Shown piece after piece: positions 7,777-61,975 of a stretch of DNA of 64,000 nt. Origin of the DNA: Eledone cirrhosa (taxonomy: Eukaryota); contig OZ024742.1 in assembly GCA_964016885.1 (NCBI GenBank), positions 152,148,001 through 152,212,000 of the forward strand, in the 5' to 3' direction. The notes beneath the pieces were generated by a model. The model worked only from the letters and a program-made list of their open reading frames with translations. It did no database searches and had not been told where the DNA came from. How positions within the stretch are numbered: the first letter of the stretch is position 1; every line of letters begins with the position of its first letter. The translations under genes were made by a program, and so were the position numbers.

Positions 7777-8281
7777 AAACAAGGTTTAGCAAATAAGGAA
7801 AAAGTTTCAAAATAAATTAAAAAAAATTAACATTACCTACTATAGTTACCTTTACCAATTCGGTTTCGAATCTCAAAAATAAACGGAGTCCATACGGCCT
7901 TCGTTGCAAAGAAAGATTCTCGTCAGAAGGTTCTTTACATTCGAAGAATATAAAATCCTCGAACTTAAATTACAAACTGGCGCTATTCAAAATTGTTCCC
8001 GAGATGAGAGTAAATGAAGGGGAATCAATTTTTTCAAGGGCCGAGTGCAAAGATAGAAGCAGAGGCAGGCAGGTCAGTCTGCTACCGCTATAACTAGCAT
8101 CAGTCAGAACGACCACATTTTTTTCTCAACATAGAGGAGCATAGTAATAATAGAATATGCGTTCCTACACGCACAACGCGCTAAGGGACACATGTATTGT
8201 CCAACCAAATGCCAATGTGGTTCAATGGCAGGTTAATAAATTAACGAGCCAGAAAATATATAAACAAGGTTTAGCAAATAA
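7777..8281 (-). mobile_element. Non-coding HHR-bearing element (PLE pLTR- or retrozyme-like) with 20-bp terminal direct repeat, inserted in (TA)n
   Basis: aaacaaggtttagcaaataa at 7777-7796 and 8262-8281 (period 485). (TA)n on both sides and an internal HHR. Confidence 0.75.
7848..7931 (-). ncRNA. Type I hammerhead ribozyme, canonical core
   Basis: Minus strand: ACCUU-CUGACGA-GAAUC..GAUUC-GAAA-CC GAAUU GG-UA-AAGGU. Stem I 5 bp, stem II at least 5 bp, stem III closed, GUA cleavage triplet. Confidence 0.85.
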
Positions 8282-9081
8282 ATATATATATATATATATA
8301 TATATATATATATATATATATATATATATATATATATATATATATATATATATATATACATATATATATATATATATATATATATATATATACAAATATA
8401 AATTATCGAGAATCGTATTTCGGCCTATGAAATAACGAAAAACAACCTCCGAGATGTGTTGCAAGTGCTCAATGATTCAGATGAACCAGAGCTACAACAT
8501 ACGTTAAAGGCCAAACACACTGAGACGATGGTTAAACAATCATCCGCACAGCCCCCCTCCGCCCCCCCCCCCCAAAAAAAACGATCAAGTAATTCGGGTC
8601 AAACAAATAAAAATATATGTGATTGAAAATTTACCCGGACCCTTGGATGGTTGGTAAAATCCAGCATTTGGGTTTCTGCGACTCCTAAATCAAGTACTGT
8701 CCGCTTACGTAAATACTGTTAGGCTTCTGGTAAGATGATTGAACAAGGAAGCCACTTTTTCAACAGGTTTTAGTTCAATGCTAATTTAAGGAATGACTAT
8801 TACTGACTCCACGTGGGGTTCGGCAAGGGAGGCAACCCTTATATATATATATATATATATACGGAGTAACAAATTATTGTTATAGGTAGTCCACTTAAGT
8901 GTTATCCAGTTATGGTACTCCGGGTAGTGGATGATATCAACGCTTGGCTAAGTTTGACTCAACAAGGCGTTTCCATAGTGATGTTGCGAGTACGCTGTAA
9001 TTCCTATGTTGTAAACACTTGGAGTAATGATAAATCAGGAAAGAAGAGTGACACGGTTTCCTATACAAAAAAGGTTTTTAA

Positions 9082-9202
9082 TCTCATTGCTGACAATTGT
9101 TTCTCTGAACTGGTAGGTCTAGAGATCGCTACCCGCTTGTTTTTACGTTATTCGATCACCAATACAAAGTTATAACCAGTCAATTCATCGGAGCTTGTGA
9201 GA
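9082..9202 (-). ncRNA. HHR-like motif (CCGAUGA core, long stem II)
   Basis: GCU-CCGAUGA-AUUGACUGGU...ACCAGUUCAGA-GAAAC AAUU GUC-AGC. Palindromic stem III as in PLE minimal HHRs. Confidence 0.6.
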
Positions 9203-9602
9203 ATGAAAAGAATATACAGGCATGGTTACTATATATAGTAGTAATGGCATTCAATCAGAACAATAACAACAATACTAACAATGCTAGCAATAAATTATTT
9301 GAAATAATCACAACATCAATCTAGGTGAGAAGTATAGTATATCTACGATTTTAGCGTGTAAAACTAGCTGACATGAGGCAAATATATAAAATTGACATGT
9401 AAAAGCTGTCATGGGGTGTATTATATATAGTGTAAAGATAAGCCGATGTCTTTAAACAATGTAGGTCTGGTGGCCGTAAGAATCATTTATTATCTGACAG
9501 ATTATAAATTTATCACTGTAGTGAGGATAGTAATATTTGTGTGGTCTATAATAGATGAAAAGATTGTCTAGCTTTCTCATCATCAATAACATACATGTAT
9601 AA

Positions 9603-9820
9603 AGGAACGATCGACTTTCGTCAAATCGGACCGAGGGGACAATGTTTCCGTTGGTCTTTCCAATTGCTAATACTATCTATCGGTCGCAACTCCAGGTAGA
9701 AGGAGCAACGTGAAATAAAGTGTCTTGCTCAAGGACATAACGCATCGCCTGGTCCAGGAATCGAACTCACAACCTTACGATTGCGAATCCAATTCCCTAA
9801 CCACTCAGCCACACGCCTTC
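9603..9820 (-). mobile_element. tRNA-derived SINE (family B) with target-site duplication
   Basis: Minus strand has an A-box-like tggctgagtggtt and a B-box gagttcgattcc. acatgtataa is duplicated at 9593-9602 and 9821-9830, and the opposite arm shows the empty site. Confidence 0.85.
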
Positions 9821-10753
9821 ACATGTATAAGACAACATTAATAGAGTAGCAATATAATGGGCAAGTTAATTCAGAAGTTAAGGAGGCAATATATATATAT
9901 ATATATATATCCATACACACACAGACATATATATATATATATATATATATATATATATATATATATATATATATATATATATATATATATATATATATAT
10001 ATATATATATATATATATATATATATATATATATATATATATATATATATATATATATATATATATATATATACGTACATATAAAGAGAAAACATGCTGA
10101 CTAAATTTTTTAACAGGCGGAAGGTAAAGTTCTGCTGTAGTAGTATTTTGAAATGTTCTTGGATTTAGGTTCATGTGCTGACATCAGCTGAGAAGAGATA
10201 TATTTATGGGTTGATGAGGAAACTTACATACATTAGTGTGGTATAGAACTAAGAAGGCTAGAATGCCTCCTTAACCTCTGGATTAACTTGCCCATTATAT
10301 TGCTACTCTGTTAATGTTGTCTTATACATGTATGTTATTGATGATGAGAAAGATAGACAACCCTTTCATCTAATATAGACCACACAAATATTGAACCTAA
10401 CACCACAATTACTACCACAATATTACTACCCTCACTACAGTGATAGATTCTTCATCTGTCAGATAATAAATGATTCTTACGCCCACCAGACCTACATTGT
10501 TTAAAGACACCAGCTTATCTTTACACTAGATATAATACACCCCATGACAGCTTTTACATGTCAATTTTATACATCTGCCTCATGTCAGCTAGTTTTACAC
10601 GCTAAAAGCGTAGATATACTATACTTCCCACCTAGATTAATGTTGTGATTATTTCAAATAATTTATTGCTAGCATTGTTAGTATTGTTGTTATTGTTCTG
10701 ATTGAATGCCATTACTACTATATATAGTAGCCATGCATGTATATTCTTTTCAT

Positions 10754-10874
10754 TCTCACAAGTTCCGATGAATTGACTGGTTATAACTTTGTATTGGTGA
10801 TCGAATAACGTAAAAACAAGCGAGTAGCGATCTCTAGATCTATCAGTTCAGAGAAACAATTGTCAACAATGAGA
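10754..10874 (+). ncRNA. HHR-like motif (CCGAUGA core, long stem II)
   Basis: GUU-CCGAUGA-AUUGACUGGU...AUCAGUUCAGA-GAAAC AAUU GUC-AAC. Stem I is extended by UCUCA/UGAGA. Confidence 0.6.
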
Positions 10875-11016
10875 TTAAAAACCTTTTTGTATAGCAAACC
10901 GTGTCATTCTTCTTTCCTGATTTATATATATATATATATATATATATATATATATATATATATATATATATAATAAAATAAATAAGTCAAATGCTTAAAA
11001 TTTGGCTTCGTTTATT

Positions 11017-59818: not shown

Positions 59819-59914
59819 GAATAATATAATATAATATAATATAATATAATATAATATAATATAATATAATATAATATAATATAATATAATATAATATAAT
59901 ATAATATAATATAA
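59819..59914 (+). repeat. (ATAAT)n pentanucleotide repeat
   Basis: Direct reading. Confidence 0.95.
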
Positions 59915-60189
59915 TTCTTTCTACTTTAGGCACAAATGTATGTGTGTATGTGCGTGGGTGTTGCAAGTGACAGACATGCGGTCAAACTAGTATTCATAGT
60001 ATTTCCTCCTAATATCGTATTAGTCCACTCAGACACGAGGGAAATTTATTTCTTGTATCATTAAATGTATAGGGACTACTCCAGATAATTTAACTTATGT
60101 TGCCGAAGTGCAATTGCAACTTCGATGTACTACTGTATATATATATATGTATATATATACAAAGGTTATATTTATATATATATATATAT

Positions 60190-60609
60190 AAAATTTCAGG
60201 TTATCAAAAATGTAGCGATAATATATCGTTACGTTAGAGATGAACAGCGTACGTGCAGGTTTGCTCAACGAGTATAAATTATATTCCGGAGAAAATGTAG
60301 AAAGGATGAATATAAAATGAAAGTGCTTTTGTTAGCAGTAAATTAATTTACCATCTGTCATATACTATCCCCTCTGTTCCTTCCTCTTTTACTAATATAA
60401 ATACTTCAATTTTTCTGATTTTATCCTATTTATCCAAAATCTCTGAAGAAGTGACAACTGATTATACATTTGCTATCGGATACTTGCTAACATTATATGA
60501 TTACGCAAGCAGCGATACATAGGTATTCGGTCTGTTACAGAAACATATGTCAATACCTAATAAATTCCTTTTTCAACAAAAGCACTTTCATTTTATATTC
60601 ATCCTTTCT
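60190..60609. mobile_element. Second copy of the 33378-34148 family with only 35-bp inverted arms (60299-60333, 60575-60609) and HHR-like motif 60437-60556
   Basis: Same ~110-bp lead and same pLTR body, flanked by (TA)n. Confidence 0.9.
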
Positions 60610-60637
60610 ATATATATATATATATATATATATATAT

Positions 60638-60920
60638 AATGTAGGAGGTGAGTTTTATTGTAGTACAATAAAGCAATGCAGATATCGGATAAGAAGCACT
60701 CTACAGTTTGTAGGACTGGAGTATACATAATATATAAGATCAAAAGATGGTTGATTTAAAACTGCACTATCCACAAGTGTTTTTTAGCCTTCATATCATG
60801 TTCTCCTGTTTTATCTGATGAAAACACAAATATTATTGCATGATGATGTTTGTTTTTGACATGCGCATAATAAAATACATGGAACTCCTTTAACCATCTT
60901 TTGATCTTATATATTATATA
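60638..60920. mobile_element. Small inverted-repeat element (arms about 60727-60752 and 60893-60918) with HHR 60809-60875 on the plus strand
   Basis: UUUUAU-CUGAUGA-AAACA..UGUUUUU-GACA-UGCGCA-UA-AUAAAA (GAAA changed to GACA). Confidence 0.75.
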
Positions 60921-60932
60921 TATATATATATA

Positions 60933-61975
60933 GTTAAAAGAATAGAGGTGTAACGCACAAGTTATTATATATTGGTAAGCGGAATAGAAAATGCTGACAA
61001 ATTGTTCACAGTTGAAAAATGGTTTAATTAGGAATAAAAGAGTATTAGTAATTGTATGGGTTGGTATTCAGTTGTGGTTTTAAGTTTTTAAGTTTTTACC
61101 GGTTGCGCATTTCTAAATGCTTTTCAAAAATAATTTTGAGATAGAGTGTCCGTGTTGTTTGCTCTGATCTGATTAGTTTTGGGAATTCTACCTGTTTTTA
61201 TGTTAACAAGGTGGCTCCAGCGCTACTTTGGTGTTGCAAAAATTCTTGTGGTCAAAACAATTTTGATTGGTCGGTAGAGGTCATGTGAATGTAAAAAATT
61301 GATATTGCGCCAAGACTGTTTTTATGTTAAAAAAGTGGCTCCAGCGCTACTTCGTGTTTGCAAGAATTATTTAATAGGATATCCTTAGATTTCATTATTT
61401 AAAAAAGTTCTTGGGAACATAATCTACATTCATTTCTACTATTTTGATAAGGGGTGGCCCTTTTGAGCACACTCCAGGTCAGGTCATATTCTATATTCCT
61501 CTTTCTATAACTATTTATTATTTCAGCTAGAGATGTTGTATTAGCTAGTGCGGCATTTTTAAAACTATGTTTGTGGGTATTAAATCTTACCTTAAATTTG
61601 TTACAGGTAGCTCCTATATATGAATAAATTGAGTCCTTAGTGTTAACTTTACATTTATATACTATGTTATTAACAAGGATATCCTTTTAAATAAGGGACA
61701 GGAATTAATAATATCGTGTAATCATAAACTGAGAAAAACCTTTAAATATTATAAACCTAATTAATATACACTTTAGAAATTAATTTATAAATTATTTTTA
61801 ATTTAGTTAACCTATAATTAATATTCTACTACTGATGAACTACATAATTCTGCTTTCCTTCTTACAAATATCATTTCCTAAAACTGATACCATTAAGTAA
61901 ACATATATAATGCTTTAACTTCAGGTTATGACTCTATGTTCCTTGAAAACTATATATATTTACTATTTCTCACTA
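60933..61975 (-). mobile_element. Decayed PLE 3' portion with U3-A8 HHR remnant (61093-61130) and internal ~55-bp direct repeat
   Basis: UUU-UUGAAAA-GCAUUU AG AAAUGC-GCAA-CCGG-UA-AAA. Degraded PLE thumb-like coding near 61750-61960. Confidence 0.5.

Follow-up and report, generated by a model that had tools for sequence, protein, structure and literature searches.

Hammerhead ribozyme motifs beside (TA)n tracts in a 64-kb stretch of the Eledone cirrhosa genome, probably ends of Penelope-like elements

Hammerhead motifs in the window

The stretch analysed here, called the window throughout (64,000 nucleotides (nt) of Eledone cirrhosa contig OZ024742.1, positions 152,148,001 to 152,212,000), is AT-rich animal DNA, and mollusc proteins are among the closest named relatives of one of its open reading frames (ORFs). 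It contains 95 (TA)n tracts of at least 12 nt, 3,032 bases in total, together with numerous motifs of the type I hammerhead ribozyme (HHR) and remnants of ORFs from Penelope-like elements (PLEs), whose ends these motifs probably represent.

The whole window was scanned with a type I descriptor that tolerates one core change, a covariant U3-A8 pair, a mismatch at the base of helix II, long loops and a palindromic helix III; a score of at least 26 was taken as a match, and 21 matches were obtained. A descriptor lacking the helix II base mismatch gave just 3-4 good matches, and the looser version was adopted. The sequence-only reading of this DNA had listed about 25 HHR-like motifs, and a recognisable core indeed lies at or within about 110 nt of all 25 listed positions. 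Seventeen pass the scan and eight are partly decayed, failing the descriptor while keeping the core or two of the three helices:

Passing: 7848, 9082, 10754, 11017, 11178, 13144, 13806, 16894, 34543, 35255, 35309, 36162, 47831, 48363, 51659, 60809, 61093
Failing, irregular helix II: 26394
Failing, core changes: 29831, 45631
Failing, weak proximal helix I: 33541, 33978, 60437, 45154
Failing, G8 changed: 35039

The 21 matches are these 17, a motif at 62922 absent from the list, and three uncurated matches (8763, 51835, 63393) that may be due to chance. An unchanged core with all three helices is present in 12 motifs (11 listed and 62922), and six further scan-passing motifs have one core change. 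Further decayed HHR-like cores, left uncounted, lie at 5585-5690 and 20445-20510 on the minus strand and at 61833 and 62684 on the plus strand. The density corresponds to 280-440 per Mb (18-28 motifs in 64 kb) in a window picked for its density.

Controls against chance

The motifs are real type I HHR-shaped folds. A relaxed descriptor might nevertheless collect accidental matches in AT-rich, hairpin-rich DNA: about one is expected per window, three scan matches are uncurated, Rfam gives no match at gathering score, and an initial control with 48 decoy cores averaged 5.3 matches with a maximum of 30. When this control was redone with microsatellites masked and shift-like decoys removed, 45 decoys averaged 0.98 matches (maximum 3) against 21. 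The comparison with shuffled sequence proposed along with the earlier list also came out in its favour, since dinucleotide shuffles of the whole window (n=60) averaged 0.65 matches (maximum 2) and shuffles inside 500-nt blocks (n=60) averaged 0.85 (maximum 4). The reversed window, which retains all hairpins, has one match. With 21 matches against about one or fewer across four controls, the shuffle, reversed and decoy tests refute an origin by chance, which we regard as extremely improbable.

Two features outside the selection criteria argue against it as well, the 3' TA polarity described below and the palindromic helix III. The latter is perfectly palindromic in 12 of 24 sites chosen by core and helix II alone, in 9 of 109 such sites from 15 shuffles, and in 0 of 5 from the reversed window. 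Moreover, a search for the long-helix-II pattern (see below) in metagenomes and prokaryote genomes, which hold hardly any animal DNA, returned at least 158 distinct bare-core matches, none with all three helices among those listed.

The suspicion that standard annotation would overlook these elements proved justified as regards Rfam. Rfam gave no match in the window at gathering score, and no hammerhead family appears in the best 150 of 211 rows at E<=5.

Families and motif structure

Our own grouping places 28 curated motifs in 17 families (F1-F17):

F1, 7848-7931, minus strand: HHR with canonical core, helix II of 52 nt, helix III of 5 bp
F2, 9033-9602 / 10322-10922, cores at 9191 (minus) and 10765 (plus): head-to-head arms, U4C, 81-nt helix II, palindromic helix III
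F3, 10973..11374, HHRs at 11017-11071 (minus) and 11178-11232 (plus): head-to-head pair, canonical core
F4, 11590..11650, minus strand: core and 6-bp helix II, helix I lost; absent from the earlier list
F5, 13006..13960, cores at 13188 (minus) and 13811 (plus): fold-back with U3-A8 core, centre at 13499
F6, 16889..17012, plus strand: U4C, 86-nt helix II, palindromic helix III; TA 42 nt downstream
F7, 26121..26656, HHR at 26394-26478 (plus): inverted arms of 216 nt, 8-bp helix I, 5-bp helix III, irregular helix II
F8, 28085..28260, minus strand: partial copy, 3' half of the motif alone
F8, 29831..29963, plus strand: decayed HHR and 3' end
F8, 45591..45743, minus strand: decayed HHR, core at 45716
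F9, 33379..34147, cores at 33654 (minus) and 33984 (plus): fold-back with centre near 33818, 90-nt helix II, left-arm tail 112 nt longer
F9, 60191..60608, core at 60443 (plus): second locus, repeating the long inverted tail and the short 3' end of 33379-34147
F10, 34397..35149, cores at 34599 (minus) and 35045 (plus): head-to-head pair, one core change each
F11, 35172..35376, cores at 35299 (minus) and 35315 (plus): short fold-back, U.U at the helix II base
F12, 36090..36380, cores at 36194 (minus) and 36276 (plus): fold-back with U3-A8, 77% like 61095-61164
F12, 61093..61130, minus strand: U3-A8, A13 changed
F13, 45154..45265, plus strand: 83-nt branched helix II, palindromic helix III, proximal helix I broken
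F14, 47673..48731, minus strand, cores at 47954 and 48487: 9-bp helix I, 38-nt helix II, long rod-like helix III
F15, 51659..51694, minus strand: classic minimal HHR, 2-bp palindromic helix III, U at the cleavage position
F16, 60809..60878, plus strand: A14 changed, 8-bp helix I, palindromic helix III
F17, 62914..63054, plus strand: canonical core, 105-nt rod-like helix II (z -5.8), palindromic helix III, 9-bp helix I; missed by the earlier reading

The earlier count of more than 12 families therefore stands by this grouping, while their supposed unrelatedness holds in part. The copies at 36162 and 61093 share 77%, self-comparison matches 29831 with 45631 and 28140, and F2, F6 and F9 are related as discussed below.

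The motifs fall into several classes, namely a U3-A8 core with a 6-nt palindromic helix III (F5, F12), a Hydra-type U.U helix II base (F11), the classic minimal form (F15), a monomer-type helix III (F1, F7, F14) and the long-helix-II form. Across families the sequence of helix III differs yet the palindrome is kept, in few copies. Two compensatory changes, in helices I and II, separate 36162 from 61093. Between the two F2 arms there are 5 differences in 146 positions, and two of these make up a compensatory C-G/U-A pair in helix I; with a chance of ~3% by rough count, this pair is suggestive only. Disruptive changes occur in some copies (45631, 45154).

For F14, a motif lacking helix II (47831/48363) was considered and rejected, the junction sitting at the second GAAA to give the 38-nt helix II; the fold z-scores are -5.8 and -5.2. 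The majority letters of its helix III (40 of 263 rows) are not readable as covariation. The F17 motif at 62922 lies in the second unit of an old 234-nt tandem (62548-62705 / 62782-62935).

Position relative to (TA)n tracts and polyadenylation signals

As the sequence-only reading held, nearly all motifs lie beside (TA)n, and the adjacency is directional, with the 3' end abutting the tract. A (TA)6 or longer tract occurs within 250 nt 3' of the cleavage site in 25 of the 28 curated motifs and 16 of the 17 families (median 140 nt); at random positions the proportion is 24% and the median 647 nt, and none of 5000 resamples was as extreme. On the 5' side such a tract is near just 7 of the 28. AATAAA, said to follow many motifs shortly, is enriched within 60 nt (9 of 28 motifs, 5 of 17 families, against a 6.7% background), which concerns one third of the motifs rather than most. 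The wider suggestion that much of the apparently unique DNA consists of such elements goes too far: among inter-TA blocks of at least 100 nt between 7778 and 60914, 19 of 45 carry a motif, and these 19 blocks contain 12,932 of 47,901 unmasked bases, 27% as an upper bound.

Head-to-head pairs

Seven complete head-to-head pairs are present (F2, F3, F5, F9, F10, F11 and F12), and the HHRs point outward in all of them. Partial pairs are found in F7, at 60191-60608 and between two ORF ends at 61285-61779. From cleavage site to TA the distances by arm are 230/58, 49/147, 145/137, 167/55, 152/55, 89/45 and 132/419, and several pair centres are short palindromes with nearly no spacer. The seven pairs and their one-sided tails correspond to the known layout of inverted, 5'-truncated PLE copies.

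Long, near-perfect inverted arms, such as those of F5 (98.9% identical over 910 nt), could also suggest foldback DNA elements or elements resembling miniature inverted-repeat transposable elements, with the HHRs as passengers. This is very improbable, however, given the outward orientation in all pairs, the unequal arm ends, the single-arm copies of the same families (60437, 61093, 29831) and the one head-to-head pair made of PLE ORF ends.

Another fold-back, at 35445-35743, lies between TA-rich ends, and no HHR was found in it. A 41-nt hairpin-like motif by TA tracts is common to 36045-36085 and 44990-45030, with GAAAC on the minus strand and no full core.

Remnants of PLE open reading frames

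Profile hidden Markov models (HMMs) built from 150 + 15 + 119 relatives and covering three PLE groups identify at least eight PLE ORF remnants, while the reversed window has no match below E 0.4:

11865-12811, minus strand: 5'-truncated PLE ORF with C-terminal endonuclease (HMM)
14039-16063, plus strand: Hydra-clade PLE ORF, frameshifted, starting at a TA tract (DKT, CxCx5C, CxxC, CxH)
25007-25386, 38536-39547 and 42602-42709, plus strand: PLE ORF remnants (HMM)
49750-49893 and 49876-51255, minus strand: PLE ORF remnants (HMM)
61285-61779, minus strand: end of a Hydra-clade endonuclease ORF (HMM)
61657-61773, plus strand: second ORF end, weak match, head-to-head with 61285-61779

Pfam returned no relevant family for four PLE pieces and a weak RVT_1 for one. 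A word-index search with the Hydra endonuclease gave no match; a HMMER search did find relatives.

Judged from motifs read by eye, the ORF at 14039-16063 appears to carry the Hydra-clade diagnostics of section 11 of PMC8557442. The Hydra clade can be assigned on sequence grounds to the ORFs at 14039 and 61285, and by adjacency probably to F12, whose HHR at 61093 lies 158 nt downstream of the latter. The F4 core (11642) is 223 nt downstream of a PLE ORF end, and a decayed HHR core at ~16180 follows the ORF at 14039-16063 by 117 nt. The link to PLEs drawn in the sequence-only reading is thus borne out directly behind a Hydra-clade ORF by F12 (61093, with its relative 36162/36275), and by the 11642 and 16180 cores after PLE ORF ends.

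A 44-nt inverted repeat (11417-11460 / 12807-12850) accompanies the ORF at 11865-12811. At 49750-51255, on the minus strand, the PLE reverse transcriptase of one group runs into a Hydra-type endonuclease end, as abutting elements or a chimera, and a 33-nt inverted repeat (51257-51289 / 51375-51407) lies beside it.

Units without ORFs

Two families look different. F1 (7778..8281, minus strand) is a 484-nt unit between TA tracts with a 20-nt direct repeat at both ends; its longest stop-free frame is 51 aa, and the PLE HMMs find no match in it. F14 (47673-48731) consists of two head-to-tail 532-nt units, 97.3% identical, with an HHR in each and a longest stop-free frame of 52 aa. Four public sequencing runs were mapped on 46994-48204, placing 4,312 contigs (X1) and 8,360 reads (X12). 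The 532-nt family is multi-copy, and its coverage in these runs is 3'-biased: summed word depth, which is no copy number and drops with divergence too, is 138,016 at 47773-47813, 2,433 in the core bin and 1,278 at the 5' end. Other copies show tandem joints that reach back by 473 and by 499 nt, as well as one joint to the opposite strand, each resting on two read starts or one contig.

These units raise the alternative that most families are ORF-less non-LTR (long terminal repeat) retrozymes of 300-900 nt, propagated through circular or tandem RNAs with PLE enzymes acting in trans. The F1 unit with its terminal repeat, the F14 tandem and its joints 473-499 nt back, and four more families with long ORF-free arms speak for it, as do the retrozyme units of 51-972 bp, many of them monomers, reported in the accessible part of bioRxiv 2026.07.22.740005. 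Tandem arrangement is seen here in 1 of 17 families, however, where it could be a local duplication; the head-to-head pairs and tails are marks of PLE insertion, F12 and F4 lie behind ORF ends, and the 3'-biased coverage fits 5' truncation. We therefore hold it unlikely for most families. The community of ORF-less ribozyme retroelements that had been proposed earlier finds positive signs in 2 of 17 families (F1, F14); as a majority it is not supported. F12 and F4 follow ORF ends, and the arms of most other families are too short to separate a truncated PLE from an ORF-less unit.

Next to F14, a unit of ~620 nt at 46994-47659, between TA tracts and with a 46-nt direct repeat at both ends, is present in very high copy, with a depth of up to 617,887 summed words (X1), the highest of the mapped stretch. 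It contains CUGAUGA and GAAA in reverse order with no acceptable helix II/III by eye, and no PLE ORF match.

Long-helix-II form

Five families (F2, F6, F9, F13, F17) have a long helix II, with inserts of 81, 86, 90, 83 and 105 nt for which plain or branched rods are predicted (z from -0.2 to -5.8, and below -2.3 in 6 of 8 copies). The base of their helix II is A.A or C.A, and the 6-nt palindrome within helix III is a different one in each of the five. U4C, found in F2 and F6, slows cleavage yet is viable in a viroid, according to PMC3088659. F2, F6 and F9 have internal segments of helix II in common and are likely distant relatives. In their inserts (10765, 16899, 33984) a similar 4 x 3 internal loop is seen by eye ~25-30 nt up the rod, its 3' side ending in (C/U)AG.

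In F9 (33984-34095, 60443-60555) the predicted fold pairs the 8 nt that follow the cleavage site, without mismatch, with part of the helix II insert (-8.0 kcal/mol), while pairing of the same 8 nt with the 5' strand of helix I is predicted at -2.4 kcal/mol or weaker. F2 has a 6-bp analogue. This pairing could possibly act as a folding switch. The long-helix-II form is a probable structural variant, its predicted fold being unlike the published HHRs compared; it would widen the natural range of the hammerhead fold and should be cheap to assay. The five families, as well as the density of 280-440 per Mb, are possibly new. PLE-linked HHR variants were reportedly described by Lunse et al. 2017 and Arkhipova et al. 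2017, which may already cover this form.

A bolder proposal combines several of these features. The window would belong to a genome with more ribozymes per Mb (several hundred) than any described so far, of the order of a million motifs if the window is representative. This population would be invisible to Rfam and would include an undescribed hammerhead class defined by an 81-105-nt helix II rod, a mismatched base, a shared internal loop, an 8-nt palindromic helix III and an insert able to sequester helix I's 3' strand, over 8 bp in F9, as an off switch; several such families would spread without an ORF, through two-strand priming on (TA)n. Taken as a whole, we find this unlikely.

Proposed origin

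The motifs are probably the 3' terminal repeats (pseudo-LTRs) of many PLE families, for the most part dead and truncated at the 5' end, alongside a smaller number of short ORF-less units using the same machinery, because TA adjacency is confined to the 3' side, the head-to-head pairs point outward, the tails are unequal and Hydra-clade ORFs lie in the window. Since (TA)n is self-complementary and identical on both strands, both nicks would prime cDNA from the 3' region of the RNA. If synthesis stopped early and the two cDNAs were joined, or one cDNA snapped back on itself, the product would be two arms head to head, their 3' ends facing outward and one tail longer than the other. Since only the final few hundred bases would be kept, no part of the element would be over-represented as much as the HHR. 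Where helix III is a palindrome of 4-8 nt, cleavage would take place in dimers within tandem transcripts; in F1, F7, F11 and F14 helix III could form in the monomer, and single copies with core changes are likely inactive relics.

Several results weigh against this origin, besides the limits of the F14 depths and joints given above. ORFs are tied to 2 of 17 families (F12, F4), leaving 15 without such a link, and F1 and F14 look ORF-less. In F2, F5, F15 and F17 the 310-890 nt upstream of the core are ORF-free, beyond the 117-223 nt seen behind ORF ends, as judged with HMMs of three PLE groups. In addition, several predicted folds are not of minimum energy (F1, z -0.3; F6, z -0.5; F11, z +0.9).

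Other repeats of the window

Positions 1-5535 hold two tandem copies of a non-LTR retrotransposon with RVT_1, ending in (AAT)n and having a 127-nt duplicated 3' end (5246-5372 / 5394-5520); it is probably of the Dong-R4 type. A family of ~190 nt resembling short interspersed nuclear elements, unrelated to the HHR elements, has at least eight copies:

18521-18706, 19808-20011, 20072-20233, 23866-24022, 27344-27482, 30470-30628, 44614-44813, 55988-56175

Comparison with known systems

The core of the finding is known, since earlier papers have described HHRs at PLE ends, the targeting of (TA)n and truncated copies in inverted orientation. A search that left most subscription journals outside returned no paper with cephalopod hammerheads as its subject.

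PMC8557442 describes Hydra-clade PLEs, including Hydra-1_Obim, that target (TA)n, bear an HHR close to the 3' end and occur with tails and as truncated copies in inverted orientation. The likeness to the window extends to the C-terminal endonuclease ORF with DKT, CxCx5C, CxxC and CxH, to the (TA)n target, and to a type I HHR shortly behind the ORF, a helix II base mismatch, inverted 5'-truncated copies and tails. The helix II base mismatch and helix III types in File S2 of that paper are as here, and the F11 U.U is as in published Hydra-clade HHRs. In all Hydra HHRs seen in File S2, however, the core is CUGANGA and the loop of helix II measures 3-10 nt, whereas the window has U3-A8 behind a Hydra ORF (F12) and five families with an 81-105-nt helix II. 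The tails reach 100-170 nt here against 30-40 in the Hydra-clade PLEs described there.

Minimal metazoan PLE HHRs are reported to cleave as dimers with low activity (Cervera and de la Pena 2014, PMC4209133), and the available text ascribes U3-A8 cores and opposite-strand HHR pairs 100-700 bp apart to truncated PLEs. Palindromic helix III, U3-A8, an extra base after A9, many families and mostly solitary copies are shared with the window; a long rod-like helix II and U4C were not found for the HHRs in the accessible part of that paper. Its genome totals, as far as the source is accessible, are ~2,000 + 1,300 in S. mansoni, 4,000 in coelacanth and 9,000 in X. tropicalis, and 18-28 motifs in 64 kb are far denser, with a looser descriptor and one chosen window. 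In the axolotl, 126,247 HHRs (PMC7229834) in 28.21 Gb (bioRxiv 2026.07.22.740005), as stated in the accessible parts, amount to ~4.5 per Mb. The density comparison is an upper estimate because descriptors differ and the window was chosen for density.

Non-LTR retrozymes (Cervera and de la Pena 2020, PMC7229834; Li et al., bioRxiv 2026.07.22.740005) likewise form head-to-tail ORF-less units with a type I HHR each, as F14 does, and the monomer with terminal redundancy (F1) and the PLE origin are further likenesses. Membership applies in part, to F14 and F1 alone (2 of 17 families); neither a (TA)n target nor a head-to-head arrangement was found in the accessible parts of these sources.

For cephalopods, 235 hammerhead loci were reported genome-wide by Rfam in the giant squid (accessible part of PMC6962438). 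A 2026 repeat annotation of O. vulgaris gives 6.83% PLEs in 190 families and 15.12% unknown repeats, with ribozymes unmentioned in its accessible part (PMC13282606); PLE abundance as such is therefore expected. As Rfam-based annotation is blind to the motifs, an HHR-anchored scan could classify such unknown repeats. Introns would contain, on either strand, hundreds of motifs per Mb with a potential for self-cleavage.

Finally, the protein of one PLE nicks AT-rich DNA on both strands, extends both and uses two internal RNA start sites (Frangieh et al. 2024, PMC11167929). This PLE, PAc Poseidon, belongs to another clade and was studied in vitro, where the HHR needed protein and was dispensable for insertion. 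Its two-strand nicking and two start sites would account for the paired arms and unequal tails seen here, and the many head-to-head pairs whose long and short ends are fixed could serve to test on genomic sequence whether PLE integration involves two-strand priming, which is still an open point.

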